From Candidatus Solibacter sp. (GTDB lineage Bacteria; Acidobacteriota; Terriglobia; Bryobacterales; Bryobacteraceae): a DNA stretch of 64,000 nucleotides. The stretch covers positions 2,727 to 66,726 of the forward strand of contig JBBIQR010000002.1 in NCBI GenBank assembly GCA_037442245.1. The letters are read 5' to 3'. This document shows, piece after piece, positions 1,955-59,594 of this stretch (positions are counted from its first letter, which is position 1; each line of letters begins with the position of its first letter). The notes below the pieces were generated by a model. The model searched no databases, had not been told where the DNA came from, and saw only the letters and a list, made by a program, of their open reading frames with translations. A program made the translations under genes and the position numbers.

Positions 1955-2005
1955 GTCCAGTTGAATCCGGCAAGATGCCGGAGCGAACCACGAAAGGATT
2001 TCACC

Positions 2006-4360: not shown

Positions 4361-4374
4361 CCGCAACCCTGACC

Positions 4375-4410: not shown

Positions 4411-4424
4411 CGCCCGACGGGGGC

Positions 4425-4452: not shown

Positions 4453-4476
4453 GTCTGTTCGGCCCTGGAGTCGTTT

Positions 4477-16993: not shown

Positions 16994-17713
16994 ATGGACG
17001 ACCTCAAGGGAAGACTCGCGCTCGTCACCGGAGCCAGCCGCGGCATTGGGCGCGCCGCGGCCATCGGACTCGCGCGCGCCGGCGCCGATATCGTGGTGCA
17101 CTATCGCGCCCGGATCGAGGCGGCGCGCGAAGTGGAGGCCGCCGTCCGCGCGCTCGGATGCCGCACCGCCCTGGTACAGGCGGACGTGGCGCGCACGTCC
17201 GAGATCGAACGCCTCGCGCGCGAAGCCGGGGCTGTGGACATCCTGGTCAACAACGCCGGCATCGCCAGGCCGCAGCCGGTGGAAGAGATCACCGAAGCCG
17301 ATTGGGACGAGGTGGTCGATACCAACCTCAAATCGTGCTTCCTGCTGACGCAGGCGCTGCTCCCCGGCATGCGCGCGCGCCGCTGGGGACGGGTCATCAA
17401 CCTGTCGTCGGTGGCGGCGCAGGTGGGCGGCGTGGTTGGTCCGCACTACGCCGCGTCCAAAGCGGGGATGCACGGCCTCACCCATTTCTACGCCAACCGG
17501 CTGGCCAAAGAGGGGATCACGGTGAACGCCATCGCCCCGGCCTTGATCGAGACCGAAATGGTGACGTCCAATATCCAGGCCACGCCGGACCGCATCCCGG
17601 TGGGCCGGTTCGGCTGCGTGGACGAAGTCGCCGAGGTCGTAGTGATGCTGGCGCGCAACGGGTACATTACCGGACAGACGATCAACGTCAACGGCGGCTG
17701 GTACCAGAGTTGA
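16994..17713 (+). CDS. Short-chain dehydrogenase/reductase (FabG-like)
   Basis: ATG 16994. Motifs TGASRGIG, NNAG and YAASKAG (YxxxK). 239 aa. Confidence 0.9.
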   Translation: MDDLKGRLALVTGASRGIGRAAAIGLARAGADIVVHYRARIEAAREVEAAVRALGCRTALVQADVARTSEIERLAREAGAVDILVNNAGIARPQPVEEITEADWDEVVDTNLKSCFLLTQALLPGMRARRWGRVINLSSVAAQVGGVVGPHYAASKAGMHGLTHFYANRLAKEGITVNAIAPALIETEMVTSNIQATPDRIPVGRFGCVDEVAEVVVMLARNGYITGQTINVNGGWYQS

Positions 17714-40570: not shown

Positions 40571-41074
40571 CTATTTTGCCTTGGGCGGATACTTGTCGAA
40601 CGCCTTCTTCACCATGGCATCCAGTCTGCCCTGGATCTTGTTCGGATCGCTCTTCGCTTCGCGCGCGATCGCCCGCCACACCAGCGACCGCGTGCGCGGG
40701 TCGCGCAGATCGATGACCAGCGTGCCTTCGGTGTACGGCACCCGCACGACCCGCGTTCCCCATCCGCGCCACCCCGCCGGGTACCGCTCGACCTCCGTCC
40801 TCCGCGCGGCGCCCAGCGTGTAGCGGACGTTTAGATCGCTCGCGCCTGACTCGACAAAGACGAACCCTCTCGCCTCCATGCTCCTGCGAATATCGGCGTC
40901 GATCTGTTTTCGTACCAGTTCGCTGTTTAGCGCCGGATTCCTGCTGCTCAGTCTGCCGTCGCGGATCGCGAACGTGTGAAATCGCGTGAAGTCCGCGGAT
41001 GGGTCGAATTCGACGTCCACCTTCTGCGCGAAGGCTGCCGCCGCGGCGAGCAGGCCAATCAGGAGTAGCCTCAC
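40571..41074 (-). CDS. DUF4136-like exported protein
   Basis: GTG 41074. Signal VRLLLIGLLAAAAAFAQ. Pattern FDPSADFTRFHTFAI ... GTLVIDLRDPRTRSLVWRAIA, typical of DUF4136. The long upstream part of the track ORF is discounted. Confidence 0.6.
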   Translation of the reverse strand: MRLLLIGLLAAAAAFAQKVDVEFDPSADFTRFHTFAIRDGRLSSRNPALNSELVRKQIDADIRRSMEARGFVFVESGASDLNVRYTLGAARRTEVERYPAGWRGWGTRVVRVPYTEGTLVIDLRDPRTRSLVWRAIAREAKSDPNKIQGRLDAMVKKAFDKYPPKAK

Positions 41075-41197
41075 ATCCGGCGAATGTACCACACGCTCGC
41101 AACCCGTGCGCCGGGCGGGCCGGGACGCTCCGGCGCATGCCGCACAACCGCGCCCCTTGTGGTAATCTCGTAGCACCTGGAGGAGGGTAGACATAAC

Positions 41198-41746
41198 GTG
41201 ACCAGAAGAATGTGGATGCTGCTGGGCGCCGCGCTGCCCGCGTTGCCCGGCGGCCTTCGGGCACAGGCAGTCGCGCCGCCGAAGACGCAACTGAAAGAGG
41301 GCGATACGGCCCCGGACTTCACGCTCGGTTCGACGGCCGGCGGCAAGGTGACGTTGAGCGACTTCCGCGGTAAGAACACGGTGGTGCTGGCGTTCTTCCC
41401 GGCCGCTTTCACCGGTGGTTGAACGAAGGAATTCACGGCGTACCAGGCTGGTATCGCGAAATTCGAAAGCACCGACACGAAGGTTTTTGGAATCAGTACC
41501 GACAACACTCCGTCGCAACGGGAGTTTGCCGCAAAGAACGGGATTCAGGTTCCGCTGCTGAGCGATTTCGCCCAGCGCAAGGTCAGTAAAGAGTACGGCG
41601 TCCTCATCGAGGCGGCGGGGATTGCCAACCGCGCCACCTTCGTCGTCGATAAGGACGGGAAGATCGTCTACATCGAGCAGGGCAATTCGGCCATCGACCC
41701 CACGGGCGCCGAGACCGCCTGTAGCCGGTCCGCTCACAAGAAGTGA
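41198..41746 (+). CDS. Secreted peroxiredoxin (AhpC/TSA, AhpE/Bcp-like) with in-frame TGA (probable selenocysteine) at codon 75
   Basis: Signal peptide [24 protein letters not shown]. Sequence reads ...[20 protein letters not shown](41420-41422)[49 protein letters not shown]...[17 protein letters not shown]... The same frame stays open for 107 more codons to TGA 41744-41746. The TGA sits where the peroxidatic Cys is expected. A hairpin follows at 41429-41464. Confidence 0.7.
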
Positions 41747-41799
41747 GGCTCAGCGCCGGGCGGCGTCCTCGCGGCGTTCCCGGCGTTTTGCCGCGTGCC

Positions 41800-43497
41800 A
41801 TGCGCCGGGATGCGAGGAACCCTTTGCTGTGGATGCCGCTCGCGGCGCTCCTGGCCGCTCCGGTGGCCCTCCGCCCAGCCGATTCTCCCACCGCAAGCGC
41901 CGGTTCCTTCGTGGATGTGACCGGGCGCGCCGGCGTCCGCTTCGTCCACCAGGCGAGCCTCACGTCGCGCAAGTATCTGGTCGAATCGATGAGCGGCGGG
42001 GTGGCCGTGTTCGACTACAACGGCGACGGACTGCCCGACATCTACCTGGTGAACGGCGCGCAACTGCGCGACCCGATGCCCGCGGACGCGCGGCCCGGAA
42101 AGTCCGATCCGCGCTTCTGGAACCGGCTCTACCGCAATAACGGCGACGGCACGTTTAGCGATGTGACCGTGCAGGCCGGCGTACAAGGGAATGGCTACGG
42201 GATGGGAGTCGCCGCGGCCGACTTTGACAACGACGGCCACACCGACCTCTACGTCACCAGCTTTGGCGGCAACATCCTCTACCACAACAATGGGGACGGC
42301 ACGTTCAGCGATGTGACCGCTCAGGCGGGCGTCTCCGGCAGCGGTTGGTCCGCCGGCGCGCTCTTCATCGACTACGACAAGGATGGCCTGCTGGACCTCG
42401 TGGTCTCGCGTTACCTCAAGTGGGACTTCTCGAAGGACGTCTGGTGCGGCCTGCGCAAGCCCGGGTACCGTGCCTACTGCCACCCGGATCAATTCGAGCC
42501 GGTCACCCATCTTCTGTTTCACAACCTCGGGCACGGACGCTTCGAAGACGTCTCCGAACGGAGCGGTCTGGCGCGCTTTCCGGGCAAAGGTCTGGGCCTG
42601 GCGATGGCCGATTTCGACCGCGACGGCTGGCCCGATATCTTCATCGCCAACGACGCGGTCCCGCAGCAACTCTTCCGCAATCGCGGCGACGGCACCTTCG
42701 AGGAGGTGGCGCTGGCGCGGGGCGTGGCTTACGATTCCGACGGCCGCAGTTTCTCCGGCATGGGCACGGACTTCGCCGATTACGATAACGACGGCTGGCC
42801 CGACCTGTTCGCCAACGCGCTCGCCACACAGCGCTACGCCCTGTTTCACAACGTGAAGGGCTCCTTCGATTACGTCTCCGACTCGAGCGGCGTGGGCGGC
42901 GCCAGCATGCTGCATTCCGGCTGGGGCAGCCGCTTCTTCGATTTCGACAACGACGGCTGGAAGGACCTGTTCGTCGCGCAGGGCCACGTGATGGACAACA
43001 TCCAGCTCACCGAACCGCAACTCCGCTACCTGGAGCCGCCGCTGCTCCTGCGCAACGTCAAGGGGCGGTTTGCCGATGTGTCGGCGCAGGCGGGAGCGCC
43101 TTTCCGCATCCCGCGCGCGGCGCGCGGCGCGGCGTTCGGCGACCTGAACCGCGACGGGCGCGTGGATATCGTGATCAACTGCAACAATGCCGCGGCGGTG
43201 GTGCTGGAGAACCGCTTCGTCAACGCCAATCATTGGCTGATGGTGGATACGCAGGGCAGCCGCAGCAACCGCGACGGAATCGGCACGCTCATCCGGCTGG
43301 TGACCGCGTCGGGGCTGGAACAGTATGCGACCGTGACCAGCGGCGGCAGCTACCTCTCGTCGAACGATAAGCGGGTTCACTTCGGGCTGGGTCCGGAGAC
43401 CCGGGTGAAGCTTCTGGAACTGACGTGGCCCAGCGGGCAGGTGCAGCGGTTGCGCGACCTCGCGGCGGACCGCGTCCTTACCGTGCGCGAGCCTTGA
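41800..43497 (+). CDS. FG-GAP repeat / ASPIC-UnbV domain protein (CRTAC1-like), paralog 2
   Basis: Signal MRRDARNPLLWMPLAALLAAPVAL. Repeated DxDGDGxxD FG-GAP loops. UnbV_ASPIC C-terminus (NRDGIGTLIRL...GGSYLSSND...FGLG...LTWPSG). An alternative GTG start at 41743 overlaps the peroxiredoxin stop. Confidence 0.9.
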   Translation: MRRDARNPLLWMPLAALLAAPVALRPADSPTASAGSFVDVTGRAGVRFVHQASLTSRKYLVESMSGGVAVFDYNGDGLPDIYLVNGAQLRDPMPADARPGKSDPRFWNRLYRNNGDGTFSDVTVQAGVQGNGYGMGVAAADFDNDGHTDLYVTSFGGNILYHNNGDGTFSDVTAQAGVSGSGWSAGALFIDYDKDGLLDLVVSRYLKWDFSKDVWCGLRKPGYRAYCHPDQFEPVTHLLFHNLGHGRFEDVSERSGLARFPGKGLGLAMADFDRDGWPDIFIANDAVPQQLFRNRGDGTFEEVALARGVAYDSDGRSFSGMGTDFADYDNDGWPDLFANALATQRYALFHNVKGSFDYVSDSSGVGGASMLHSGWGSRFFDFDNDGWKDLFVAQGHVMDNIQLTEPQLRYLEPPLLLRNVKGRFADVSAQAGAPFRIPRAARGAAFGDLNRDGRVDIVINCNNAAAVVLENRFVNANHWLMVDTQGSRSNRDGIGTLIRLVTASGLEQYATVTSGGSYLSSNDKRVHFGLGPETRVKLLELTWPSGQVQRLRDLAADRVLTVREP

Positions 43498-46042
43498 GGC
43501 CGGCGAGCACCTGGAGCGCCTTTTCGATATCGGGGTCGCCGGGAGCGTCGTGTTGCGCGGCGCGCAGGTCGCGCTCGCCGTCCTCCAGGCGCCCGGCCTG
43601 GCACTCGGTGAGCGCCAGATTCTTGCGTAGAGTTGCCAGCGCGGAGCACGCACCGCAGACCTGGATGGCTTCGCGTAACTGGGCAATGGCCTGGTCCCAC
43701 TTGCCGGCTTGAGCCGCGGCGAGCGCGAAGTTGCTGAGGGTACGCGCGCGTTCGGTGAGGCCGCCCTGCGTCTGCAACTGCTCGATACGGGCGCGGTAGC
43801 GGGCCGCTTCGGCGGGATCGCTCTTCGATGACGCGCGCATCATGCTGTAAAGGGCCTGCTTGTGCTCCGGCTCGACGGCGAGCGCCTGCTTCCAGGCCTT
43901 CACCGCCTCCGTGTTCCGCCCGAGGCTTTGCTCGGATTGTCCGAGGAGGAACCACGCCTCGGCGTTGCGCGGATCGAGTGCGACGGCGCGTTGCAGCGCG
44001 GCAGCCGCGTCGCCGTAGCGGCTCAATTCTCTCTCGGCGATGCCCAACCGGTAGAAGGCATCTGCGCCCGAGGGATCCATGCGGCAAGCCGTCTGCAACT
44101 CGCCGAGAGCCTCGTCGTAGCGATGCAACTCCACCAGCATGCGTCCCTTGTTGTAGTGCGTGGCGGCGACGTTGCCCGCGAGCTTCACCGCTTCGGAGAA
44201 CTCGGCCAGAGCCGCCTCGCTCTGCTGCCTGTCGGCGAGCGCGATTCCCAGGTTGAGATGGGCCTCGGCCGATGCGGGGTCGAGAGCCGCGACTGTGCGG
44301 AACGTCTCCAGCGCCGCCCCATCGCCGGAGCGCGCCTCGACCATGCCGAGTGCGGTCAGCGCCTTGATATTCCGCGGCTCGGCGGCTACCGCGGCGTCGA
44401 GTTCCTTGCGCGCCGCCGCGAAATCGCCGCGCGCGGCCACGATCAGCGCCAGGTTGACCCGCGCCTGCGCGTAGTTCGGACTGTTCTCGATCGCCTGGCG
44501 GAACAGGCGTTCCGCGCCCGCCGCATCGCCGCGCTGTCCGTAGAGCACGCCCAGGTTGTTCTGGCACTCGGCGCACTGCGGATCGCTCACCAGCGCCGTG
44601 GTGAACTGCCGTTCGGCGTCCGCCGCGCGGCCCTGTTCCAGGTAGAGCAGTCCCAACTGGCTGCGCGCCGGCGCGAAGCCGGAATCGAGCGACGTGGATT
44701 TTTCGAGCGACGCCACGGCTCCAGCCGAATCCCGCACCTTCAGTTGCGCGAGCGCCAGGTTGTACCAGGTCTTCGCGTTGCCGGGTTCGAGCTTGAGCGC
44801 CTCCTGGTAACCCGCGATGGCCGCCTTCGGATCTCCCGTCACCAGAGCCTGATTGGCCTTGTTGGCGGTGGTGCCGGCGATGTTGTTCATCACGTCCTGG
44901 TGCTTGCGCTGTTCAAAGGCGGAGAGCTCCTTGCCGGCGAGTTCGGGTTGATTGAGGCGGCGCAGCACGTTCGCCAACTGAAACTGCGCCTCCTCGGAAT
45001 CCGGCTGCAGGCGGCGCGCGGTCTCCAGGTGCTCTCTGGCTTCGGCGTACCGGCCGAGCCGCGCCAGAACGAACCCGTAGTTGTATTGCGAGGGATAGAA
45101 GCCGGCGTCCTCCTTCACGGCCGCCGCCAGATCCAGCGCGGCTTTTTCGTAGTCGCCGGTACCGCGGTAAACGAGCCCGCGGAGGTAGCGCGCCTCTGCG
45201 TCGCGCGGCCGGCGCGCAAGGACTTCGTCGAGCGCCGGCAGAGCGTCGGTCTGCCGGTCGAGCGCGATCAGCGCCTTGGCCAGCGAGAGGCGGGTCACGT
45301 TGTCGGTGGGGTTGAGCTCGACCGCCTTACGGAAATGTTCGGTCGCATCTTCATAGCGCTTCTGGCGCGCGTAGAGGGTGCCCAGGTTGGATTCAGCCAG
45401 CGCCGGGCGCGGCAGCGCCGCCACCGCTCTGGTAAGAAGATCGATGGCGGCATCCGCCTGTCCGTTTTCGTAAAGAGCCTGTGCCAGCGATACCTGGTGA
45501 TCCGCGCTGCGCGGTTCGAGCGCTACGGCCTGCCGCAGATACGTGGCGGCCGCGGTATACCGCTTCTGCGCCGCGAGCAGGTCGCCCAGGTGCTGCAGCG
45601 CTGCCGCGGACCTCGCGTCGAGCCGGATCGCCTCGCGGTACTGCGCCTCCGCGCCCGCGGGATTGCCGCTATCCTCCAGCGCGATGCCCAGCGCCAGGTG
45701 CGCCGGCGGCGAAGCCGGGGATTGCGCGGCCAGCGTGCCGAGTTCGCGGACTGCGCGCTGCGCGTCGCCGCTCTGCAAGAGAGCCAGTCCCAGGTTGTAG
45801 CGCGCCTCCGCGAAGCGCGGGTCATCGCGCAAGGCCGCTTCAAACGCGGCAATCGCGCAGCGGTTGTTGTTCCGCTGCGCGTACCATGCGCCCAGACTGT
45901 TGGAGACGTCGGCGGAGCGTTTCCCGGCCGGCAATTCCTTCGGCGGATCGCATCCCGGTGGAACCTGCGCCGGAGCGGCCGCCGTGGAGACGAACAAAAG
46001 ACTGAGGGCCCGGAGGAATGAGGTGCGCACAACTTCCCGCAT
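43478..46042 (-). CDS. Large secreted TPR-repeat protein (854 aa)
   Basis: Signal peptide followed by more than 15 canonical TPR units (A..Y..A...P....A...LG......G....A). Lies 38 nt downstream of the TonB-dependent receptor gene on the same strand. Confidence 0.85.
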   Translation of the reverse strand: MREVVRTSFLRALSLLFVSTAAAPAQVPPGCDPPKELPAGKRSADVSNSLGAWYAQRNNNRCAIAAFEAALRDDPRFAEARYNLGLALLQSGDAQRAVRELGTLAAQSPASPPAHLALGIALEDSGNPAGAEAQYREAIRLDARSAAALQHLGDLLAAQKRYTAAATYLRQAVALEPRSADHQVSLAQALYENGQADAAIDLLTRAVAALPRPALAESNLGTLYARQKRYEDATEHFRKAVELNPTDNVTRLSLAKALIALDRQTDALPALDEVLARRPRDAEARYLRGLVYRGTGDYEKAALDLAAAVKEDAGFYPSQYNYGFVLARLGRYAEAREHLETARRLQPDSEEAQFQLANVLRRLNQPELAGKELSAFEQRKHQDVMNNIAGTTANKANQALVTGDPKAAIAGYQEALKLEPGNAKTWYNLALAQLKVRDSAGAVASLEKSTSLDSGFAPARSQLGLLYLEQGRAADAERQFTTALVSDPQCAECQNNLGVLYGQRGDAAGAERLFRQAIENSPNYAQARVNLALIVAARGDFAAARKELDAAVAAEPRNIKALTALGMVEARSGDGAALETFRTVAALDPASAEAHLNLGIALADRQQSEAALAEFSEAVKLAGNVAATHYNKGRMLVELHRYDEALGELQTACRMDPSGADAFYRLGIAERELSRYGDAAAALQRAVALDPRNAEAWFLLGQSEQSLGRNTEAVKAWKQALAVEPEHKQALYSMMRASSKSDPAEAARYRARIEQLQTQGGLTERARTLSNFALAAAQAGKWDQAIAQLREAIQVCGACSALATLRKNLALTECQAGRLEDGERDLRAAQHDAPGDPDIEKALQVLAGLKARAR

Positions 46043-46080
46043 TATCTCACGTCCCTATCCGGGCCCCTGTTGGAGCAGCT

Positions 46081-49000
46081 TCAGAAGATGATCTTCAGCC
46101 CGAATTGCAGCGAGCGGGGACCGGTCGCGGTACCGAAGATCTTTCCGAAGTTCGGGTCCAGCACGTTGCCGTTCGGCGATCCGAGAATCACCGTGTTCGG
46201 CGTGTTGAAGGACTCGGCGCGGAACTCGACCAGCTTGCCCTCCCGGATGGCGAACTGCCGGAAGACCGAGAGGTCCACGTTCCAGACCGCGGAGGAGCGC
46301 ATGGCGAACCTCCCCAGGTTGCCGAAAGTATACTGCGCCGGCGCGGCGAACGCGGCGGTGTTGAACCACTCTTGCGCGGTTGGACTGGAAAGCGTGGGAT
46401 TGCCGACGAGGTTGGCTCGCAGGTATCCCGTGTTCCCGGTGTTGGCCAGGTCGCCCGGCACCGTGATGTTATACGGCAGCCCGGAGCGGGCGGTGGTGAT
46501 CGTGTTGATTTGCCAGCCGCCGACGAGGGCGTTCGCCACCGGATTGCGGGTGTCGAACGTCTTGCCTTTGCCGAAGGGCAGCTCGTAGACCAGGTTCGCG
46601 CTGAGCACCTGCGTCAGGTCGAAGCCCGAGACGCTGCGGTCGCGGCCGAGGTTGTAGGGATCTTCCACCGACTGGCCTTCCACTCCGTACCAGCCCGAGG
46701 CGCCCATGTCGATGGACTTCGAGTAGGTGTAAGACACCTGATAGGCCAGTCCCTTGGCGAAGCGCTTGTTGAACTGGAACTGCAGCGAGTTGTAATTGCC
46801 GCGCCCGATGGTGCGGTCATAGTAGCTCGGGTGGATGTAGGGGAACGGCGCGCGGTCGGCGGGATTGCCCGGCCCCGGGGTCAGCGCGACGTTGTAGTAG
46901 CCACCCACGTCCAGACGGCGGCTGCCCGACCCGACGTAATCGATCGAAACCGTGGTCGTGGGGTTCAGCTCCTTGGCGATGCCGAAATTCCACTGCATCG
47001 AATACGGGTTCTTGCCGTAGGGATCGTAATACCACTGCACCTGGTTGAACGGCGTGGGCGCGGGGAAGAGTCCGCCGCCCGCGGCAAACGGGTTCAGCCC
47101 CGTCACCACCGGCGTCGCCGTACCCGGTATCGGGACGTTGAGGTTGTTGGCCAACTGCTGTCCGATGTCGGGCCAGTCGCCTTCGTAGTTCTGCGATGTC
47201 TGCGTGACCGCGGCCCAGTTGTCGTAGTAGATGCCGAAGCCGGCGCGCACCGCCATGGTTTCGCTCACGCGGTAGGCGAGCCCGATGCGCGGGCCCCAGT
47301 TGGTGGTCGTGTCGTGGTAGATCTTGCCGTTGGGCGAGACGATCACGTGCGCGGGAAGGGTGCCGTCGCCGGGGATGCAGGGCGCGTGCCCGCGCTGGCT
47401 GCACGGCGGCGGCAGTTGCTGGAGGATGTAGTTGCCGCTGTTGAAGTCGATGGAGCCGGTCTCGATGCCGCCGTTCTGTCCCACGGTATCGGGACGCCCG
47501 TAGGGTGGGATGAAGGTGCGGTCGTAGCGCAGCCCGAGGTTGATCGTCAGTCGCGGCGCGGCTTTCCACGAATCCTGGAAGTAGAAGCCCATCACGCCGC
47601 CCCAGCGCGTGGTTTCGTGGACGTTGCGCCGCCCGGCGCTATCCGGCACGTTGAGCAGGAACGAGGCCATCGAGTTTCCGGGGTTGAGATTGAGGTGCGC
47701 CGGGTCGGCCGTCTGCTGATACGCATACGAGACGCTGGCGCTGTTGTAGAGCGATTCGAAGGTGCTGCTGTTGAGTTCGCCGCCCCATCGCAGCGTGTGG
47801 CTGCCGATGGTCTTGGAGACGTTCGCCTTCCACTGGTGGACGTTGGTCTCGTTGGGATTCAGCGAAAGGCCGCTGCCCGGAATCGACGTGCTGTAACCGG
47901 CGATGCCGACGCTTGGCATCAGGTTGGCGCCGCCGATGAAGTTGCCTGCGAAATTGGGGGAGAAACCCAGGGTCCCGGCGGTTTGCCCCGCGTTCAGGCC
48001 GTTGTACACGGTCACGCTGTTGGTTTCCTGGTGCGAGCGGCCGAATTGAGCCTGCAGCATCAGGGTCGGGCTGAAGGTGTGCACCCAGCTTGCGCCGAAG
48101 TTCTGCCCGGGGTTGTCCTTGATGGTGTTGGTGACGACCGGGAGACCGCCCGATCCGGACGTGTCGTAGTAGAGAGCGCTGTAGCGGAACCAGAAGAAGT
48201 CTTTGGACCCGAGGTTCTGGTCGATGCGGGTGGTGAATTCGTTCTGGTGTTGCAGGAACGGCGTATTGTCCTCGGCGTTGAAGTTGCCGATGCCGACGTT
48301 GAACAACTGAGGCCGGACCTGCTTCACGAAGCTCACCAGCTGGGTGTTGATCAGATTCGCCGGAATCTGGTTGCCGGGGAACGGATCGCGCAAGAAGCCG
48401 CCGGGATTGTTCGGGTCCGGACGCGTGCTGAAAGGGTTGAACGCCTGTGCCTGTCCGCTGAGATCGCCGCTCAACTCCTGGTCGCTCGGCAGGTGCAGAT
48501 AGGAGTTCGCCGCCTGCGAGAACTGGAACCCTTCGTACGCGGCGAAGAAGAAGGTCTTGTTCTTACCGTTGTACAGTTTCGGGATCCACACGGGTCCGCC
48601 GGCGGCGATGCCGTACTGATTCTGGCGGAACGGGGTCACCGAATTCTGGAACGTGCTGCGCGCGTTGAACGCGTCGTTACGCAGGAACTCCCATGCCGAT
48701 CCATGGAGTTCGTTGGTGCCGGACTTGGTGGCGACGTTGACGATTCCGCCGAGAGCGCCGCCGAATTCAGCCAGATCGTTGTGACCGTTCACCTTGAATT
48801 CCTCGATCGCGTCCACGATCGGGGGCACGGCGTAGGTGCTGGAGAACGCACCCTGGTTGTTCAAGCCGTCGGTCATGAAGAAGTTGCTGCGATTGGTCTG
48901 TCCGTTGATGGACGGGAAGACGAAGGCCGTCCCCGACGCCACGTTACCGAATCCGCCCGCGTTCTGCGACACGCTCACCGGGGCGACGCCCGGCGACAGC

Positions 49001-49491
49001 GACAGAAGCTGCGTGAAATTTCGTCCATTCAGCGGCAGGTCCACCACCTGTTTGGCCGCGACCACGGCGCCCACCTCGGCGGTGGAGGCCTGCACCAGTT
49101 CGCCCGACGCCTCTACCGTGACGGTGTCCTGCACGGCGCCCACTTTGAGCGCGACGTCGAGTGTGGCCGTCTGGTTGACCGCGAGCGCGAATTGCGGAAT
49201 CTTGGTGGTCTGGAACCCCGGCGCGCTGGCCTGCAACGTATAGTTGCCGGGCGTGATGCTTAGGAACACATAGTTGCCGGCGTTGTTCGAGAGCGCTTGC
49301 CGCTCGACGGACGTATCCGTGTTGCGCAGCACTAAATTGACGTTGGGCACCACGCTGCCGCTGGCGTCGCGGACGACGCCGGTGACGGACGCGCTCGACA
49401 GTTGTGCCGAGGCCGGTATCGAGAAAATCCCAAGCGCGAGCGCGACCGCGACGAGGCTGCGCGCACCACTCGTGCCTGACAACAAGGTCAT
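46081..49491 (-). CDS. TonB-dependent outer-membrane receptor with N-terminal carboxypeptidase-regulatory-like domain
   Basis: Signal peptide. CarbopepD_reg-like module (GVVRDASGSVVPNVNLVLRNTDTSVERQALSNNAGNYVFLSITPGNYTLQASAPGF). Plug region (VVDLPLNGRNFTQLLSLSPGV). Long beta-barrel ending ...LQFGLKIIF. Confidence 0.9.
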   Translation of the reverse strand: MTLLSGTSGARSLVAVALALGIFSIPASAQLSSASVTGVVRDASGSVVPNVNLVLRNTDTSVERQALSNNAGNYVFLSITPGNYTLQASAPGFQTTKIPQFALAVNQTATLDVALKVGAVQDTVTVEASGELVQASTAEVGAVVAAKQVVDLPLNGRNFTQLLSLSPGVAPVSVSQNAGGFGNVASGTAFVFPSINGQTNRSNFFMTDGLNNQGAFSSTYAVPPIVDAIEEFKVNGHNDLAEFGGALGGIVNVATKSGTNELHGSAWEFLRNDAFNARSTFQNSVTPFRQNQYGIAAGGPVWIPKLYNGKNKTFFFAAYEGFQFSQAANSYLHLPSDQELSGDLSGQAQAFNPFSTRPDPNNPGGFLRDPFPGNQIPANLINTQLVSFVKQVRPQLFNVGIGNFNAEDNTPFLQHQNEFTTRIDQNLGSKDFFWFRYSALYYDTSGSGGLPVVTNTIKDNPGQNFGASWVHTFSPTLMLQAQFGRSHQETNSVTVYNGLNAGQTAGTLGFSPNFAGNFIGGANLMPSVGIAGYSTSIPGSGLSLNPNETNVHQWKANVSKTIGSHTLRWGGELNSSTFESLYNSASVSYAYQQTADPAHLNLNPGNSMASFLLNVPDSAGRRNVHETTRWGGVMGFYFQDSWKAAPRLTINLGLRYDRTFIPPYGRPDTVGQNGGIETGSIDFNSGNYILQQLPPPCSQRGHAPCIPGDGTLPAHVIVSPNGKIYHDTTTNWGPRIGLAYRVSETMAVRAGFGIYYDNWAAVTQTSQNYEGDWPDIGQQLANNLNVPIPGTATPVVTGLNPFAAGGGLFPAPTPFNQVQWYYDPYGKNPYSMQWNFGIAKELNPTTTVSIDYVGSGSRRLDVGGYYNVALTPGPGNPADRAPFPYIHPSYYDRTIGRGNYNSLQFQFNKRFAKGLAYQVSYTYSKSIDMGASGWYGVEGQSVEDPYNLGRDRSVSGFDLTQVLSANLVYELPFGKGKTFDTRNPVANALVGGWQINTITTARSGLPYNITVPGDLANTGNTGYLRANLVGNPTLSSPTAQEWFNTAAFAAPAQYTFGNLGRFAMRSSAVWNVDLSVFRQFAIREGKLVEFRAESFNTPNTVILGSPNGNVLDPNFGKIFGTATGPRSLQFGLKIIF

Positions 49492-49523
49492 ACATCCCCT
49501 CCCTTTAACGATAAAGTGGATCT

Positions 49524-49552
49524 ACCATATCATGCGCCCGAAAATGTGTCAA
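49524..49552 (-). promoter_or_regulatory. Sigma-70-like promoter for the TonB-receptor/TPR operon
   Basis: On the minus strand: TTGACA (plus-strand 49547-49552) - 17 nt - TATGGT (plus-strand 49524-49529). The -35 lies in the left arm of the inverted repeat at 49546-49574. Confidence 0.45.
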
Positions 49553-49567
49553 GGGCGTCGAAGCGCC

Positions 49568-49597
49568 TTGACACCGCTCCGTTGCCGGGAATATATT
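49568..49597 (+). promoter_or_regulatory. Sigma-70-like promoter for the cytochrome/FG-GAP operon
   Basis: TTGACA (49568-49573) - 18 nt - TATATT (49592-49597). The -35 lies in the right arm of the inverted repeat at 49546-49574. Confidence 0.5.
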
Positions 49598-49642
49598 GAC
49601 CCGGCAGGGCAGGCCACCGGCCGCCTCCCGCGGACCTCTCCC

Positions 49643-51301
49643 GTGAGAACGAAACCTCCAGCACGGATCGCGATTCCGCTTCTCTTTGTCTGCGCGATTT
49701 CCGCGAAGGACCCGGCCGGATACACAGGATCTGAGGCGTGCGCCGCCTGCCACCAGGAGATCTACCGCCAATACAAGCGCACGGGCATGGGGCGCTCGAT
49801 GAGGCCCGCCGCCGAAGCGCCGCTGGCGCGTGAAGTCACGGTGCACACCGAAGCGCTGCATCGCGATTGCCGGGTCTTCCGTCGCGGCGGCGACCTGTAT
49901 CAATCCGAGTCGCAGCCCGGCGTGTTCGAGAACGAAAACCGGCTGGTGTACGCGATCGGCTCGGGAGAGAACGGCATCAGCTTCGCCGTGCGCCGCGGCG
50001 ATTACCTGTTCCAGGCGCCGCTCTCCTATTACACCCGGACGCGCGCCTGGAACCTCTCCCCGGGCTACGAAGATTCGGCCGGCGGATTCAACCGTCCCAT
50101 CCAGGAAGCCTGCATCATCTGCCACGCCGGACGTCCGCGCGCAGTCGCGGGACGCGACGGACTCTATCTGGATCCCGCTTTTGCCGAGCTCGCCATCGGC
50201 TGTGAGAATTGTCACGGTCCCGGCGAGCGCCACATCGCCGCGGTGGAGCGCGGAGACGCGCCGCCGCACGATCCCGGCATCGTCAATCCGGCTCGCTTGC
50301 CGGCGCGCCTGGCCGAGGACATCTGCATGCGCTGCCATCAGGGCGGCGATGCGCGGGTGCTGCTGCCCGGCCGCGAGTACAACGACTTTCGCCCCGGCAT
50401 TCCGCTGCTAAGGACTGTCGCCATCTTCGCGCTGCCCTCGCTGCCGCCGTCCGGCGACCTGCTCCAGCATCACGAGGCCATGAAGCTGAGCCGGTGTTTT
50501 CGCGCAAGCGGCGGCAAACTGAGTTGCCTCACCTGTCACGACCCGCACCAACAACCGGATGCGGCCGCGGCTCCGGCATTCTTCCGTGCGCGCTGCCTGC
50601 GCTGCCACACGGAAAGCAGTTGCCGCGTACCGCTGGCGGAGCGCCGCGGAAATCCCGTCCCCGATAACTGCATCGCGTGCCACATGCCGCGGCGCGATGT
50701 CACGAACATCTCGCACTCGGCCCTGACCAACCACCGCATTCCGGCGAACCCGGCGATGACGCCGTCCGCGCCTGAGCGAAGAGAAGACCTGCCCGGTTTG
50801 ACTCTGCTCGATACCGCGGCCGGCGAGCCGCAACTGCCGCTGCTCACGCGGCTGAGCGCATACGGGGAACTGATGGACCGCGATCCCGCGCTACGCGGCC
50901 GCTACCTCGAGTTGCTCGCCGGGGCGGCGCGCACGGCGCCGGACGATCCCCTGGTCCTGGCCGCGCTCGGCCGCAAAGCGCTCGCCGAGGGAAGCACGGA
51001 CGCGATCCCCTACCTCACGCGCGCGGAGCAGCAGGGCGCGCCCGGCGCGTCGACTTACGTCGACCTCGCGCAGGCGCTGGCGCAGGCCGGACTCGTGGAC
51101 GAATCGGCCGCGGTCCTGGCCCGCGGCGAGCGCTTGTTTCCGTATGCCGCGACCCTGCGCAAACACCTGATCCTCGCCTACATCACGTTGAAATCGTACC
51201 CGCAGGCGAAGACCGCACTCGAGCGCTACGTGCGGGATTTTCCCGAAGACGCCTTCATGCGCGGATTGCTCGAGAAGGTGCGGACCGCCGCACCGCGTTG
51301 A
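49643..51301 (+). CDS. Heptaheme c-type cytochrome with C-terminal TPR-like domain
   Basis: Seven CxxCH motifs (CAACH, CIICH, CENCH, CMRCH, CLTCH, CLRCH, CIACH). Signal-like IAIPLLFVCAISA. C-terminal helical repeats. The GTG 49643 start was chosen to lie downstream of the predicted promoter and is uncertain. Confidence 0.8.
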   Translation: MRTKPPARIAIPLLFVCAISAKDPAGYTGSEACAACHQEIYRQYKRTGMGRSMRPAAEAPLAREVTVHTEALHRDCRVFRRGGDLYQSESQPGVFENENRLVYAIGSGENGISFAVRRGDYLFQAPLSYYTRTRAWNLSPGYEDSAGGFNRPIQEACIICHAGRPRAVAGRDGLYLDPAFAELAIGCENCHGPGERHIAAVERGDAPPHDPGIVNPARLPARLAEDICMRCHQGGDARVLLPGREYNDFRPGIPLLRTVAIFALPSLPPSGDLLQHHEAMKLSRCFRASGGKLSCLTCHDPHQQPDAAAAPAFFRARCLRCHTESSCRVPLAERRGNPVPDNCIACHMPRRDVTNISHSALTNHRIPANPAMTPSAPERREDLPGLTLLDTAAGEPQLPLLTRLSAYGELMDRDPALRGRYLELLAGAARTAPDDPLVLAALGRKALAEGSTDAIPYLTRAEQQGAPGASTYVDLAQALAQAGLVDESAAVLARGERLFPYAATLRKHLILAYITLKSYPQAKTALERYVRDFPEDAFMRGLLEKVRTAAPR

Positions 51302-51304
51302 CGC

Positions 51305-53116
51305 ATGAAGACCCGGCTCATCACGGTCGCGCTCTTCGCCACGCTGCTGGCCGCGCAGCAGATCGACACCTCGAATTTCTCTTCCGGCCGGACGGGCGCG
51401 TCGATGGCGGACCGCGCGGAATCGCCCGCTGAGCGCCGCGACTTTCTCGCAATCGCCGGCGCCGCCGATCCCGCGGAGACGCGCCGCCTGGCGGACGCCT
51501 TCGTGGCGCGCTATCCGCGCTCGTGGCTTTTGGCCGCGGCGTGGCAGATGGCCGCCGGGGCGAGCCTGGACCTGAAAGACTATCCGCGGGCGCTTGCCGC
51601 CGGCCGCTCCTCGCTCCGCCTGCTGCCGGAGAACCCGCTGTTGCTGGTAGCCGTGGCGGGAATCGAAGCGGCCGCGGGCGACAAAAGCCAATCCTTGCGC
51701 GATGCCGAAGACGCCCTGCTGTACCTTTCGGTATCGGCCGCACCCGCGGCCTTCGGCGCGAAGCAATGGGAGGAGGCGCGGGCGGATCTTCAGGCGGTTG
51801 CCCGCCGCCTGATCGCGCAAAGCGGCGCGCGCAGCGTTCCGCCGTGGGCCGCTCCGTCGCCGCCTTCGGACACCGGTCCGCGCCTGCACTACGCCGGCTC
51901 GGAGGCTTGCGCCGCCTGCCACCGGGCGGCGTACGATTCGTGGCGCGCGACCGGCATGGGCGCCATGCTCCGCCCGATCGCGGATACGGCGCCGCTGGCC
52001 GATTTCTCGCACGAAAGCGAGTTCACCGACCCCGTCTCGGGCGCGAAGGTCCGCACCGGCGGCGGCAGCCACCCCTACTTTGAGTTCTCCGCTCCCGCCG
52101 GCGTGCGCCGTTTTCCGGTCGCTTATACCATCGGCTCGAAGTGGCAGCAGGCCTACGCCATGCGGCTGCCCGACGGACGCATCTACGTCTTCCCGATCCA
52201 ATTCAACCTGCTCGAAAAGCGGTGGCTCAACTACTGGGCCACGCTGGATCCGCCCGGCAGCGAACGCACGCTGGTCGCGCGCTTTGCGGAACTCTCGCCC
52301 GCTACCAGCTACCAGCGCAATTGCGCCGTCTGCCACACCAGCCAGTTGCGCCTGCGCCGCCTGAGCGACACCACGTTTCAGGACGCGGTATTTCGCGAAC
52401 CGGGCATCGATTGCGAGATGTGCCACGGACCTTCGGCGAGCCACGCGGCGGCCATGCGCGCCGGTACAGACGGTTCCGCCGCCGCCGCCGCGCCGCCCTT
52501 CCGTTACGCGCGGCTCGATCACTGGCGCGCCACCATGATCTGCGGCCAGTGCCACCGGCAGTCGGCTCTGCGCGATCTGGGACCGAGCGGCGAGATGAAC
52601 TACTCGCCCGAACCGCCGTACTTTTCCTGGCTGCTGAGCCAGCCGCCGGCGGAATTCGGCACGCGCGCGTTCTATAAGGACGGCCGTTTTCGCGAGACCA
52701 CTTTTATCGGCGAAGCGTTTCTGCGCTCGGCGTGTTTCCGCCGCGGCACCGCGCAGTGCGCGAGTTGCCACAACCCGCATCCGGCCGGCGCGGGCGGGAA
52801 TCGCACCTCGCTCAAGTTCGCGGACCATCCCGACCAGATGTGCCTGCAGTGCCATAGCGCCTACATCCCGCGCATCGCGAGCCACACGCATCACGCCGCG
52901 AATTCGCCGGGCAGCCGCTGCATCGCGTGCCACATGCCGCCCATCATGAACAGCCTGCTGTTCCGCGCGGCGTCCCACCAGATCGAAATACCCAGTGCGG
53001 ACGCGACTCTGCGGTTCGGGCCGGAGGAGAGCCCGAACGCCTGTCTGCTCTGCCACAAGGACCGCGGCGCCGCATGGGCCGCGGACTCGCTGCGGCAGTG
53101 GGAGAAGGCGCCCTGA
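51305..53116 (+). CDS. Octaheme c-type cytochrome with N-terminal TPR-like domain
   Basis: Signal MKTRLITVALFATLLAAQ. Eight CxxCH motifs (CAACH, CAVCH, CEMCH, CGQCH, CASCH, CLQCH, CIACH, CLLCH). The heme domain is paralogous to the upstream gene (GSEACAACH..Y....TGMG). Confidence 0.85.
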   Translation: MKTRLITVALFATLLAAQQIDTSNFSSGRTGASMADRAESPAERRDFLAIAGAADPAETRRLADAFVARYPRSWLLAAAWQMAAGASLDLKDYPRALAAGRSSLRLLPENPLLLVAVAGIEAAAGDKSQSLRDAEDALLYLSVSAAPAAFGAKQWEEARADLQAVARRLIAQSGARSVPPWAAPSPPSDTGPRLHYAGSEACAACHRAAYDSWRATGMGAMLRPIADTAPLADFSHESEFTDPVSGAKVRTGGGSHPYFEFSAPAGVRRFPVAYTIGSKWQQAYAMRLPDGRIYVFPIQFNLLEKRWLNYWATLDPPGSERTLVARFAELSPATSYQRNCAVCHTSQLRLRRLSDTTFQDAVFREPGIDCEMCHGPSASHAAAMRAGTDGSAAAAAPPFRYARLDHWRATMICGQCHRQSALRDLGPSGEMNYSPEPPYFSWLLSQPPAEFGTRAFYKDGRFRETTFIGEAFLRSACFRRGTAQCASCHNPHPAGAGGNRTSLKFADHPDQMCLQCHSAYIPRIASHTHHAANSPGSRCIACHMPPIMNSLLFRAASHQIEIPSADATLRFGPEESPNACLLCHKDRGAAWAADSLRQWEKAP

Positions 53117-53150
53117 CGGGGCGGCGGTGGTACCCTGAAGGCCACTGGGA

Positions 53151-54884
53151 ATGTGGACTCGCCGGGAGATCATCGCGCTCCTCGCGCCCGCGGCGGCGTG
53201 GGGACAGGGAGTATCGTCGCGCAACGTGAAGCCGCAGCCCCGCGGCAAACCGTCGGGCCTGCCGTTCCACGCGCGCTTCACCGATGTCGCGGAACACGCC
53301 GGCCTGCGCGCCCCGCTGATCTACGGTCCGGCCGATCACAAGGACTACATCCTGGAAACGGTCGGCTGCGGCTGCGCCTTCATCGACTACGATAACGACG
53401 GTTGGCTCGACATCTTTCTGCTCAACGGCACACGCCGCGAAGGCGCGCCCGCGGGCGCCACCAACCGCCTTTACAAGAACAATCGCGACGGCACCTTCAC
53501 CGACGTCACGGAAAAGGCAGGGTTGCACCGCACCGGCTGGGCCTCGGCGGTATGCGTGGGCGACTACAACAACGACGGCTTCGACGACCTCTTCGTCACC
53601 TATTGGGGACAGAACGTTCTCTACCGCAACAATGGCGACGGCACCTTCACCGACGTGACCCGGCAAGCCGGGCTGCTGCACTCTGGAACCCGCTGGGGGT
53701 CGGGCTGCACCTTCATCGACTACAACCGCGACGGACTGCTCGACCTCTTCGTCGCCAACTACCTGGAGTTCGATTTCGAATCCGTGCCCAAGCCCGGCGA
53801 GAACGCCAACTGCAACTGGAAGGGCATCCCGGTGAATTGCGGGCCCCGTGGACTGACGCCCTCGGCGCCCGCCCTCTACCGCAACAACGGCGACGGCACG
53901 TTCACCGATGTGAGCGCCGCTTCCGGCGTGGCGCGCGCCAAGGGCAGCTACATGATGACCGCCGCCGCCGCGGACTTCGATAACGATGGCTGGCCCGATC
54001 TCTACGTGGCCTGCGACTCGACTCCGAGTTTCCTGCTACGCAACAACCGCGACGGCACGTTCACCGATATCGGCCTCGAGAGCGGTGTCGCGCTCAACGA
54101 GGACGGCATGGAACAGGCGGGCATGGGAGTCGGCGTCGGCGACTACGATCTCGACGGCAACCTCGACGTGCTCAAGACGCACTTCTCCGACGACACCTGC
54201 GTTCTGTATCACAACGACGGCAAGGGGAACTTCGAGGATCTCACCGTGCGCTCGGGCCTGGCGGTGGAGACGCGCTTCATCTCCTGGGGCGGCGGCATCT
54301 ACGACTTCGATAACGACGGCTGGCCCGACGTCCTCTGGGTCACCGGGAGCGTGTATCCGGAGATCGAAGCCAAGCTGCCCGCCTACCCCTTCCGGTCGCC
54401 GCGGGTTCTGTTCCGCAACCTCGGCGGCGGCCGTTTCGAGGAACTGATCGATCAGGGCGGCCCCGGCATTTCCACACCGCACGCGAGCCGCGGCTGCGCT
54501 TTCGGTGATTTCGACAACGACGGCGACATCGACGTGCTCATCATGAACCTCAATGAGCCGCCCTCGCTATTGCGCAACGATGTGACCGGCGGAGGAAACT
54601 GGCTCAAGGTGAAGCTGACGGGCACGAAATCGAACCGCGGCGCGGTTGGCGCGCGGGTCACCGCGGCTTACGGCGGCAAGGTGCAGGCGCAGGAAGTGCT
54701 CAGCCAGTCCAGCTTTTATTCCGCCAGCGACCAGCGGCTCCATTTTGGATTGGGCGCGGCCGCCACTGCCGACCTCGATATCCGCTGGCCTAACGGAAAT
54801 CGCGAGCGGATCGCCGCCGTTCCCGCCAACCGGTTCGTGGTGATCCGCGAAGGATCGGGCATCGTGAAATCGCAGGCGTGGTGA
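53151..54884 (+). CDS. FG-GAP repeat / ASPIC-UnbV domain protein (CRTAC1-like), paralog 3
   Basis: Tat/Sec-like MWTRREIIALLAPAAAWGQ. DYDNDGWxD FG-GAP loops repeated. UnbV_ASPIC C-terminus (NRGAVGARVT...SQSSFYSASD...FGLG...IRWPNG). Confidence 0.9.
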   Translation: MWTRREIIALLAPAAAWGQGVSSRNVKPQPRGKPSGLPFHARFTDVAEHAGLRAPLIYGPADHKDYILETVGCGCAFIDYDNDGWLDIFLLNGTRREGAPAGATNRLYKNNRDGTFTDVTEKAGLHRTGWASAVCVGDYNNDGFDDLFVTYWGQNVLYRNNGDGTFTDVTRQAGLLHSGTRWGSGCTFIDYNRDGLLDLFVANYLEFDFESVPKPGENANCNWKGIPVNCGPRGLTPSAPALYRNNGDGTFTDVSAASGVARAKGSYMMTAAAADFDNDGWPDLYVACDSTPSFLLRNNRDGTFTDIGLESGVALNEDGMEQAGMGVGVGDYDLDGNLDVLKTHFSDDTCVLYHNDGKGNFEDLTVRSGLAVETRFISWGGGIYDFDNDGWPDVLWVTGSVYPEIEAKLPAYPFRSPRVLFRNLGGGRFEELIDQGGPGISTPHASRGCAFGDFDNDGDIDVLIMNLNEPPSLLRNDVTGGGNWLKVKLTGTKSNRGAVGARVTAAYGGKVQAQEVLSQSSFYSASDQRLHFGLGAAATADLDIRWPNGNRERIAAVPANRFVVIREGSGIVKSQAW

Positions 54885-59461: not shown

Positions 59462-59594
59462 ATCCTCTCCTCGAAACAGCCGTCTGAGCGAACAAACCCG
59501 CCGCCCCGTCAAAACACTCGATGAATTATTCTTAAGCGTTTCCGCGCCGGTACCATAGCCCGAAAGGTGGAGTGTTTCCCGCTATCATGAGTAA

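Follow-up and report, generated by a model that had tools for sequence, protein, structure and literature searches.

A co-inherited Bryobacterales envelope module of a TonB-dependent transporter, multihaem cytochromes and CRTAC1-like propellers

Why do genes for two multihaem cytochromes, two CRTAC1-like propellers, a giant tetratricopeptide repeat (TPR) protein and a TonB-dependent transporter stand side by side in an acidobacterial genome? The question is raised by a 64,000-nt stretch of DNA from a Candidatus Solibacter sp. (contig JBBIQR010000002.1), which we analysed at its full length and call the window. The original prediction, made from the sequence alone, read the locus as a functionally coupled envelope system rather than a group of random neighbours, and counted in a peroxiredoxin gene (Prx) and a further cytochrome/propeller pair, module A. 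We show by co-inheritance that the six genes at 41743-54884 (propeller 2, TPR85, transporter, CYT7, CYT8 and propeller 3) are one conserved Bryobacterales envelope module. For its function we favour, with confidence no better than even, a TonB-dependent uptake locus for fucosylated glycans with a built-in multihaem electron relay. Here TPR85 denotes the 854-aa TPR protein and CYT7 and CYT8 the 7- and 8-haem cytochromes; in gene orders TBDR is the TonB-dependent transporter and PROP a propeller. L-numbers are retrieved related loci, of which L002 is the closest relative.

Co-inheritance of the gene set

We compared 80 genome loci centred on CYT8 homologues (41-73% identity), with flanks of at most 10 kb. 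These come mostly from different assemblies, two of them from one metagenome-assembled genome (MAG), and all belong to one order, Bryobacterales. A second, independent set consists of metagenome contigs centred on prop2-type propellers, not on a cytochrome. Open reading frames (ORFs) were classified by BLASTP against the window proteins and by their CXXCH counts; the caller applied to the related loci was a crude stop-to-stop one, and gene starts there are approximate. The genes of the window itself were called from an ORF map with Pfam and NCBIfam scans.

Five families recur together in the 80-locus set: CRTAC1-like propeller, CYT8, CYT7, the ~850-aa TPR85 and the TonB-dependent transporter. 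They do so in at least four permuted gene orders. Type I, PROP> <TPR85 <TBDR CYT7> CYT8> PROP>, is the order of the window and of L002, L003, L010, L012, L085 and L086. Type II, found in about 20 loci, is PROP> CYT8> CYT7> TPR85> TBDR, the transporter gene lying on one strand or the other. Type III runs <TPR85 <TBDR CYT8> ... PROP> CYT7>, and type IV runs PROP> CYT8> CYT7> <CYT7 TBDR> TPR85>. Where at least 6 kb was available on both sides of the CYT8 homologue (51 loci), all four partners were present in 20 loci, three in nine and none in eight. Propeller genes directly adjoin a cytochrome gene in 41 of 57 cases, and CYT7 adjoins CYT8 in 43 of the 80 loci. In the window the genes for propeller 2 and TPR85 are convergent, meeting tail to tail with a 20-nt overlap, a layout that is kept in L002, L012, L033, L085 and L086.

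The members that recur are particular ones. TPR85 orthologues (~2.5 kb; 37-81% identity over 94-100% of the length) adjoin a transporter in 31 loci, and these 31 transporters are 39-90% identical to the window copy over nearly the full length, 30 of them at 42% or more and the exception being a partial match; bystander transporter paralogues in the same loci reach only 25-30%. Propellers of the prop3 type follow CYT8 (16 cases), while those of the prop2 type precede CYT8 in type II loci (19 cases) or converge on TPR85 (5 cases). The dedicated transporter subfamily and the position-specific propeller types indicate that specific orthologous subfamilies, not generic paralogues, are inherited together. 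The metagenome set shows the same partners, in further arrangements: of the 40 loci in it that reach 10 kb, 27 contain another partner or a GH29 alpha-L-fucosidase gene (see below), 17 a multihaem cytochrome and 13 a transporter orthologue. Two loci from the same MAG (JADLBD01), L005 and L008, carry separate copies of a GH29-(GH29)-CYT7-CYT8-PROP array, so the module can be duplicated within one genome.

A possible objection is that very abundant paralogue families in a large acidobacterial genome have simply come to lie next to each other by chance. The propeller, TPR, transporter and cytochrome families are indeed all expanded in this lineage; the transporter alone has more than 6,600 matches at E <= 1e-50, and paralogues of ASPIC/UnbV and of TonB-dependent receptors are listed for S. 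usitatus (PMC3174227). Against this, orthologous subfamilies occur together in many species, in shuffled orders and with short gaps or overlaps, and the pattern is repeated in the independent set centred on a different gene. The original prediction had itself proposed a gene-order and co-occurrence analysis, with random scatter of abundant paralogues as the refuting outcome, and both locus sets contradict that outcome. With two independent neighbourhood surveys ruling it out, we regard chance adjacency as extremely improbable, and we conclude that the adjacency is more than chance. Thus the claim of a functionally coupled envelope system holds for the five-family set, kept as it is across many Bryobacterales species in permuted orders and with its own transporter subfamily.

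The proteins of the module

Every gene named in the original prediction was found at, or a few bases from, its claimed coordinates (Table 1). The count of 20 haems in three cytochromes is borne out by the CXXCH motifs (7 + 8 + 5 = 20, the last in module A), and all three predicted paralogous CRTAC1-like propellers match the family, with pairwise identities of 40-41%. Signal peptides or membrane anchors had been assigned to all products, and each does begin with a hydrophobic signal-like segment or membrane helices. Two details are revised. The 34-nt gap between CYT8 and propeller 3 stands, whereas the gap between CYT7 and CYT8 is 3 nt, not 4; and the GTG at 41743 does overlap the Prx stop, but as a start for propeller 2 it gives way to ATG 41800, which yields a better signal peptide.

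Table 1. Coordinates of the module and of nearby features within the window
Feature	Position	Strand	Remarks
Prx, exported AhpC/TSA-family peroxiredoxin	41198-41746	+	In-frame UGA 41420-41422; AhpC-TSA match
Propeller 2, CRTAC1-like, prop2 type	41743-43497	+	FG-GAP_3 x6 and UnbV_ASPIC; likely start ATG 41800
TPR85, 854 aa, exported, almost all canonical TPR repeats	43478-46042	-	TPR_16 4e-81 and others
TonB-dependent transporter, 1136 aa	46081-49491	-	CarboxypepD_reg, OMP_b-brl_4, TonB_dep_Rec_b-barrel
Divergent intergenic control region, 151 nt	49492-49642	.	Two back-to-back sigma-70-like promoters
Putative minus-strand promoter	TTGACA 49552-49547, 17-nt spacer, TATGGT ending 49524	-	Consensus scan
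Putative plus-strand promoter	TTGACA 49568-49573, 18-nt spacer, TATATT ending 49597	+	Consensus scan
CYT7, 7-haem cytochrome, C-terminal TPR	GTG 49643-51301	+	7 CXXCH
CYT8, 8-haem cytochrome, N-terminal TPR	51305-53116	+	8 CXXCH; 3 nt past CYT7 stop
Propeller 3, CRTAC1-like, prop3 type	53151-54884	+	34-nt gap after CYT8
DUF1501	56177-57586	-	Pair with PSCyt2/PSD1, downstream of propeller 3
PSCyt2/PSD1	57596-59512	-	Pair with DUF1501; possible accessory module
Module A, cytA and propeller 1	17741-22032	+	cytA 17741-20437; propeller 1 20433-22032

The divergent control region, predicted at about 150 bp, measures 151 nt and has two promoter-like sites inside. A scan for sigma-70-like sites over 14.4 kb returned three sites only, and the best two, matching 11/12 and 10/12 consensus positions, lie back to back in this spacer. 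Their -35 boxes make up a perfect 9-nt inverted repeat, GTGTCAAGG N11 CCTTGACAC (49546-49554 and 49566-49574), which is unique in the window. We considered the repeat as a shared operator and rejected it: the exact pattern is absent from all 86 related loci examined, and in L002 and L003, where both -35 boxes and the -10 of the plus strand survive, the halves are separated by 52 and 27 nt rather than 11. This variable spacing points to two divergent promoters, not one operator, and both operons are putatively driven from these two back-to-back promoters.

A large outer-membrane barrel encoded beside multihaem cytochromes suggests an explanation other than uptake, namely a conduit for extracellular electron transfer (EET). 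The barrel would be an MtrB/Pcc-like sheath, CYT7 the wire inserted in it and CYT8 the terminal reductase, acting on Fe(III), on humic quinones or on the organic matter of peat, with the propellers and the TPR protein as assembly or docking factors. Porin-cytochrome clusters are reported to be present and expressed in peat Bryobacterales, and conserved multihaem clusters are described from peat Acidobacteriota, the Bryobacterales EET2 cluster being composed of MtrC, DmsE, a domain-less MtrB-like porin and CytC (preprint 10.64898/2026.05.27.727921). This is a different gene set from ours, so we rejected identity with EET2, and the difference in composition also speaks against a conduit here. 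We consider the conduit quite unlikely.

The transporter has an N-terminal CarboxypepD_reg domain and matches OMP_b-brl_4 at 684 bits and TonB_dep_Rec_b-barrel (PF00593) at 32.7 bits (cut-off 27). When we searched with an AF2 model built from 56 homologues (mean pLDDT 67.8), the best Foldseek matches were all TonB-dependent transporters (FusA 4zgv at E 5e-21, YddB, PqqU, Cir and PhuR), and MtrB was absent among them. Directly after the CarboxypepD_reg domain, residues 122-128 read DTVTVEA, which we take to fit the TonB-box consensus of FhuA, BtuB and FepA; the core xTVEA is kept in 34 orthologues. The plug-like segment that follows (~129-256) is the best-conserved part of the aligned N-terminal 330 residues. 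It contains the plug hallmark motifs INGQTNRSNFFMTDG and EFGG-ALGGIVNVATK at a spacing like that of BtuB, although hhalign of the segment against BtuB gave only E 0.068 (the BtuB sequence having been entered by hand in both comparisons). A plug in the barrel is therefore probable as far as such motifs can tell. Transporter fold, TonB box and plug motifs together argue for a TonB-dependent importer and against an electron conduit, and the model likewise favours an importer over an Mtr-type porin. By sequence, the N-terminal carboxypeptidase-like domain alone found a match in the PDB; N-terminal domains of this carboxypeptidase-regulatory-like kind are characteristic of nutrient importers of the SusC type.

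TPR85, encoded beside the transporter, matches generic TPR models only in Pfam (32 families, of which the best 25 were inspected), and no SusD family is among those best 25 of 32. It has a Sec-type signal without a lipobox, and sub-threshold matches to the polysaccharide-export TPR models PrsT, PgaA and BcsC. We propose that it is a periplasmic scaffold.

The cytochromes supply points in favour of a conduit. The haem domain of CYT7 matches 6r2q_A, a 333-residue chain, at E 8.7e-8; the source table labels this chain otherwise, and we take it to be MtrA of the Shewanella baltica Mtr complex. CYT7 matches OcwA too, and has weak matches to DmsE-family and GSU2203 decahaem models (47 bits to the DmsE model TIGR03508, cut-off 192); its likeness to MtrA is local only. 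CYT8 is laid out as a signal peptide, an N-terminal TPR region (~40-175), a beta-sheet insert (~220-310) and a multihaem core; with its AF2 model (pLDDT 87.6), the single significant structural match of the core is OcwA, a terminal EET reductase (6i5b, E 4.6e-8, TM 0.51, 16% sequence identity), which CYT8 matches by sequence as well (5.6e-6). On the other side, neither cytochrome has a lipobox or MtrC-type architecture, the test for the MtrC/OmcA type (PF22113) giving matches near its threshold (24 and 32.5 bits, cut-off 30). CYT7 orthologues have Sec signal peptides and no conserved lipobox; Cys17 in the signal peptide of the window copy is not conserved in them, and we rejected CYT7 as a lipoprotein. 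Because of Sec signal peptides without a lipobox, we predict that the cytochromes are periplasmic.

One further cysteine stands out in each cytochrome. The non-haem C477 of CYT8 (~52733-52735) is invariant in 70 CYT8 homologues and aligns with C285 of CYT7 (~50496-50498), both lying 7-9 residues before the fifth CXXCH; they may be haem ligands or redox-active thiols. The unusual haem-attachment motifs CXXCK, CX3CH and CX4CH do not occur in the window cytochromes, and we rejected on that ground a dedicated lyase or TPR chaperone for unusual haem attachment.

All three propellers match FG-GAP_3 (E 2.5e-48 to 6.4e-55) and UnbV_ASPIC (61-74 bits, cut-off 23.4), and propeller 3, the N-terminus of which is Tat-like (TRREII), matches human CRTAC1 (9etn) at E 1.6e-17. 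Across 58 propellers the invariant residues are repeated Ca-binding Asp/Asn/Gly motifs and one Cys pair; no His or Met is invariant, and there is no conserved His, Cys or Met metal site. The prop2 type taken alone shows additional invariant His residues, but its sequences are too closely related to inform. We rejected a redox metalloenzyme for lack of an invariant His or Met in the 58 sequences. Ca-binding motifs without an invariant His favour a binding module over a redox enzyme, and the propellers probably bind substrate.

Module A, which had been counted as part of the system, is rather a separate, independently conserved two-gene operon. Its cytochrome, CytA, has N-terminal membrane helices, five CXXCH and a C-terminal TPR, and its orthologues are 70-79% identical and fall into more than 100 protein clusters. 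The true start of propeller 1 is ATG 20433, overlapping the cytA stop (ATGA 20433-20437) in the manner of translational coupling, and the pair with its 4-nt overlap recurs in two otherwise unrelated contexts, L087 and L088. An SDR gene (~16964-17713; adh_short E 5.7e-56) lies immediately upstream of cytA.

Propellers also occur with a partner that has no haems. In many metagenome loci the propeller gene is preceded by one for a ~345-aa haem-less, signal-peptide-bearing TPR-like protein, and in L105, L126, L131 and L133 (~8.9-10.0 kb in each) this gene is flanked by two prop2-type propeller genes. Such haem-less pairs suggest that the basic unit is a TPR-bearing protein followed by a CRTAC1-like propeller, to which haems are a frequent but not obligatory addition.

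Sugar-related neighbours and what the module may do

The substrate that we favour is suggested by the neighbours of the related loci. Of the 80 genome loci, 28 encode GH29 alpha-L-fucosidases, for the most part a pair of orthologous paralogues; in many cases these genes immediately precede those for the cytochromes or the propeller and share their strand. Their density is 28 genes/Mb in the genome set and 26/Mb in the metagenome set; the 9.9-Mb genome of 'Ca. Solibacter usitatus' has seven alpha-L-fucosidases in a published COG table (PMC3174227), and relative to this single reference genome the enrichment is roughly 40-fold. The array of L007, for example, reads GntR> SBP> SDR> MR_MLE> GH29> GH29> CYT7> CYT8> PROP> (SBP, substrate-binding protein); L043 and L044 have GH29> GH29> PSCyt> DUF1501> PROP> CYT8> CYT7> TPR85> TBDR>, and L010 has <TPR85 <TBDR GH29> CYT7> CYT8> PROP>. 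The fucosidases bear Tat-type export signals, and the MR_MLE and SDR proteins have none. Fuconate-dehydratase-like MR_MLE genes are found in nine loci, LacI-family regulators in nine, and GntR/FCD regulators and a substrate-binding protein in several, with LacI or GntR/FCD placed inside arrays. Genes for close transporter orthologues (72-77% identity) run divergently from sugar-acid operons of this kind even where TPR85 is missing.

These neighbours bear on the rival explanations. For the electron conduit they are a further point against, fucosidases and sugar regulators being its recurring company. The second rival is reductive metal acquisition, in which the transporter would import Fe(III) or another metal chelate, the cytochromes would reduce it, and the propellers would serve as Ca/metal chaperones. 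The barrel's structural neighbours are mostly siderophore, haem, copper and ferredoxin receptors, and some sources name its relatives 'outer membrane receptor protein involved in Fe transport', but both stem from the transporter fold in general. The regulators in the arrays are of the LacI and GntR/FCD kinds; no Fur-type regulator was noticed in the annotated arrays, where no systematic search for one was made, and the single ECF sigma factor noticed, likewise with no systematic search, lies outside the array of L085 on the opposite strand. The SusC-type character of the CarboxypepD_reg-like N-terminus and the propeller's lack of a conserved metal site, both described above, also count against metal uptake, which we hold to be very unlikely. 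Transporter features and sugar-type neighbours and regulators thus weaken the conduit and the metal-uptake explanations alike. The original prediction had offered two guesses at function: oxidative or reductive processing of an imported substrate, which fits best, and metal or metalloid redox chemistry, of which there is no sign among the fucosidases, fuconate genes and sugar-type regulators that recur beside the module in related loci.

Under the uptake reading the parts would work as follows. The TonB-energised outer-membrane transporter would import a glycan or oligosaccharide, most likely a fucosylated one, with TPR85 as a periplasmic scaffold beside it. CYT7 and CYT8 would dock on TPR85 through their own TPR domains, and on the Ca-binding propellers, which would dock as substrate-binding partners. 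The 15 haems would form an electron relay from the MtrA-like CYT7 to the OcwA-like, terminal-reductase-like CYT8, and so connect the respiratory chain with a redox reaction on what is imported or on its decorations. Our inferences here are the identity of the substrate, the existence of a physical complex, which way the electrons flow and what their chemical target is; a wire like MtrA joined to a terminal reductase like OcwA favours delivery of electrons to bound substrate.

The direction may also be the reverse. In this third rival, fucose released by the exported GH29 enzymes would be oxidised in the periplasm, its electrons would travel through CYT8 and CYT7 into the respiratory chain, and the cell would take up the aldonate and break it down by a fuconate dehydratase route. 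GntR/FCD regulators, the substrate-binding protein and fuconate-dehydratase-like MR_MLE genes do occur in the same arrays, and periplasmic aldose oxidation followed by aldonate uptake is established in other bacteria. However, the cluster encodes no dehydrogenase of the flavin, PQQ or molybdenum kind, a conserved catalytic His is missing from the propeller, and the cytoplasmic-type SDR of the arrays could perform the oxidation instead. We put periplasmic sugar oxidation on a level with the electron conduit, as a live though quite unlikely alternative.

Several points weigh against a fucosylated-glycan uptake locus with an electron relay. First, no fucosidase, fuconate gene or sugar regulator lies within the window's own locus, so the link to fucose or glycans runs by orthology only, and the GH29 background rate comes from one published genome. 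Second, the Pfam Plug model does not match the transporter even at E 10, and AF2 models the plug region (residues 118-259) at pLDDT <50. Third, and most weightily, we know of no redox step that fucoside use requires, which leaves the haems unexplained, and no quinol dehydrogenase or redox-enzyme partner is encoded in the cluster. Fourth, the association is not strict: eight of the 51 CYT8 paralogues stand alone, and transporter orthologues occur without cytochromes in L082 and L089. Finally, counts from a single order are inflated by shared ancestry, although the shuffled gene orders speak against simple inheritance.

A second kind of recurring neighbour is a PSCyt2/PSD1 gene followed by a DUF1501 gene. 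The pair immediately precedes the propeller gene, in the same orientation, in L026, L043, L044, L060, L066 and L080, thus in at least six loci that span three arrangement types, and is also present in L021 (propeller on the opposite strand) and L073 (propeller cut by the contig end). The DUF1501 proteins of other loci are ~28% identical to that of the window; we take DUF1501 to be Tat-exported with a sulfatase-like fold. The pair may be an accessory module or merely an abundant neighbour. Also downstream of propeller 3, a PPIase gene is common to the window and L002 only.

A bolder extension of glycan uptake, which we think unlikely, is that TPR-fused multihaem cytochromes and CRTAC1-like propellers are an as yet unrecognised non-hydrolytic redox machinery for carbohydrate processing, wired to respiration and coupled to TonB-dependent import. 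If so, it would be a cytochrome-dependent counterpart to utilisation loci based on glycoside hydrolases, and might account for the abundance of unexplained cytochrome-c domain proteins, the PSCyt/DUF1501 pairs, in glycan degraders among the Acidobacteriota, Planctomycetota and Verrucomicrobiota.

The peroxiredoxin did not hold as a member of the system. Its gene stands beside the cluster in the closest relative, L002, only and is absent from the other related loci; L085 has a GntR/FCD regulator in its place. Prx is a lineage-specific neighbour, not a core member. The original prediction also called it a seleno-peroxiredoxin, and Prx is probably a selenoprotein: the in-frame TGA falls in the peroxidatic motif, FFPAAFTGG[U]TKEF, the frame continues beyond it, the protein with C substituted matches AhpC-TSA at E 5.6e-37, and L002 has the same TGA with conserved flanks on both sides. 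Some 9 nt past the UGA comes a hairpin (~41429-41464) that L002 shares, apart from a G-C to G-U change; its folding energy is no better than that of shuffles (z 0.32), and Rfam gave no SECIS match for it and no other RNA, tRNA-Sec included. Judged from its score against the PrxU model NF040737 (62 bits, equivalog cut-off 270), Prx is classed in an AhpC/TSA subfamily other than PrxU.

On the strand opposite Prx, and overlapping it, runs a 388-aa DUF4136 ORF (40571-41737, minus strand). A GTG near 41073 would begin with a signal peptide (MRLLLIGLLAAAAAFAQ) and give a ~167-aa DUF4136 gene that does not overlap; the long ORF is probably a high-GC artefact (the GC content of the window is ~65%). 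Two genes upstream of the cluster is one for a 676-aa alginate-lyase and right-handed beta-helix (NosD-like) protein (38536-40566, minus strand), which is not kept beside the cluster in any related locus. At 147-5808, and unrelated to the cluster, two flagellin genes of unusually large size (ORFs of 556 and 799 aa) stand before fliD. The remaining genes of the window are ordinary: flagellins, an RND efflux system, TldD/PmbA and amino-acid metabolism.

Relation to known systems

The original prediction knew of no described function for this system, and we came to the same result: literature searches that combined UnbV/ASPIC/CRTAC1 with multihaem cytochromes, SusD, fucosidase or DUF1501 returned no account of this cluster. 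In the literature searched, no TonB-dependent locus for nutrient utilisation has been described that includes multihaem cytochromes and propellers. Two reports touch on its parts. A CRTAC1-family gene lies between genes for c-type haem proteins in clusters of hydrazine-synthase homologues (PMC12758564). In Verrucomicrobia, PSCyt-type proteins neighbour sulfatases and carbohydrate-binding modules and may serve carbohydrate metabolism by a mechanism not known (He et al. 2017, PMC5615132); the present cluster would be an independent case of c-type cytochromes within glycan-utilisation loci.

Bryobacterales are abundant in soils and peat, and their large genomes are full of unexplained paralogue families, among them CRTAC1-like propellers, TonB transporters with carboxypeptidase domains, TPR proteins, multihaem cytochromes and PSCyt/DUF1501 pairs. 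That specific members of such families are co-inherited and go with genes for fucose utilisation offers the first setting in which a function of bacterial CRTAC1 homologues, and of a family of TPR-fused multihaem cytochromes, can be tested. Should the haems act on a glycan that is taken up, or dispose of electrons onto it, this would be a new link from carbon-polymer turnover to respiratory electron flow in oxygen-limited soils; it would also be a warning not to interpret each acidobacterial multihaem cluster as a case of extracellular electron transfer.

Single members of the module have known likenesses. Human CRTAC1 (9etn) combines an FG-GAP-type Ca-binding propeller with a C-terminal UnbV_ASPIC domain, as the window propellers do; what differs here is the pairing with TPR-bearing multihaem cytochromes and a TonB-dependent transporter. 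We know of no bacterial member of the CRTAC1 family with a known function. The core of CYT8 resembles OcwA, the nonahaem cytochrome of the outer cell wall of Thermincola potens, in fold and sequence, but CYT8 has eight CXXCH rather than nine, carries an N-terminal TPR region and a beta-sheet insert, and comes from a diderm in which it is predicted to be periplasmic.

Two systems share the combination of an outer-membrane barrel with periplasmic partners. In synthase-dependent exopolysaccharide secretion (BcsC, PgaA, AlgK/AlgE, PelB), a long periplasmic TPR array goes with an outer-membrane barrel, as here, and the TPR arrays scaffold polysaccharide-handling enzymes. Their barrels, however, are exporters without a TonB box; our cluster has no synthase or glycosyltransferase, and the TPR85 matches fall below the curated cut-offs. 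The porin-cytochrome conduits (MtrCAB of Shewanella, Pcc of Geobacter, EET2 of Bryobacterales) likewise cluster a large outer-membrane barrel gene with periplasmic multihaem cytochromes, CYT7 is MtrA-like, and EET2 comes from the same lineage. They differ in having a plug-less 26-strand sheath where our barrel has a TonB box and plug motifs, and a 10-haem MtrA/DmsE and a lipoprotein MtrC where ours has 7- and 8-haem cytochromes with TPR fusions; the propellers, the giant TPR protein and the sugar-related neighbourhood also set our module apart.

The SusC-type polysaccharide utilisation loci (PULs) of Bacteroidota offer the remaining comparison. Like them, the module has a TonB-dependent transporter with a carboxypeptidase-regulatory-like N-terminus, an adjoining gene for a helical-repeat partner and accessory binding proteins, and in the arrays of related loci exported GH29 enzymes and sugar-type regulators. 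It has no SusD homologue, the partner being a canonical TPR protein of 854 aa with a Sec signal and not a lipoprotein lid, and the window copy carries no carbohydrate-active enzyme (CAZyme). In Bacteroidota, CRTAC1-like proteins may themselves go with SusC/SusD pairs. We know of no described PUL with multihaem cytochromes or CRTAC1-like propellers; here, unlike in PULs, two multihaem cytochromes and CRTAC1-like propellers are integral members.

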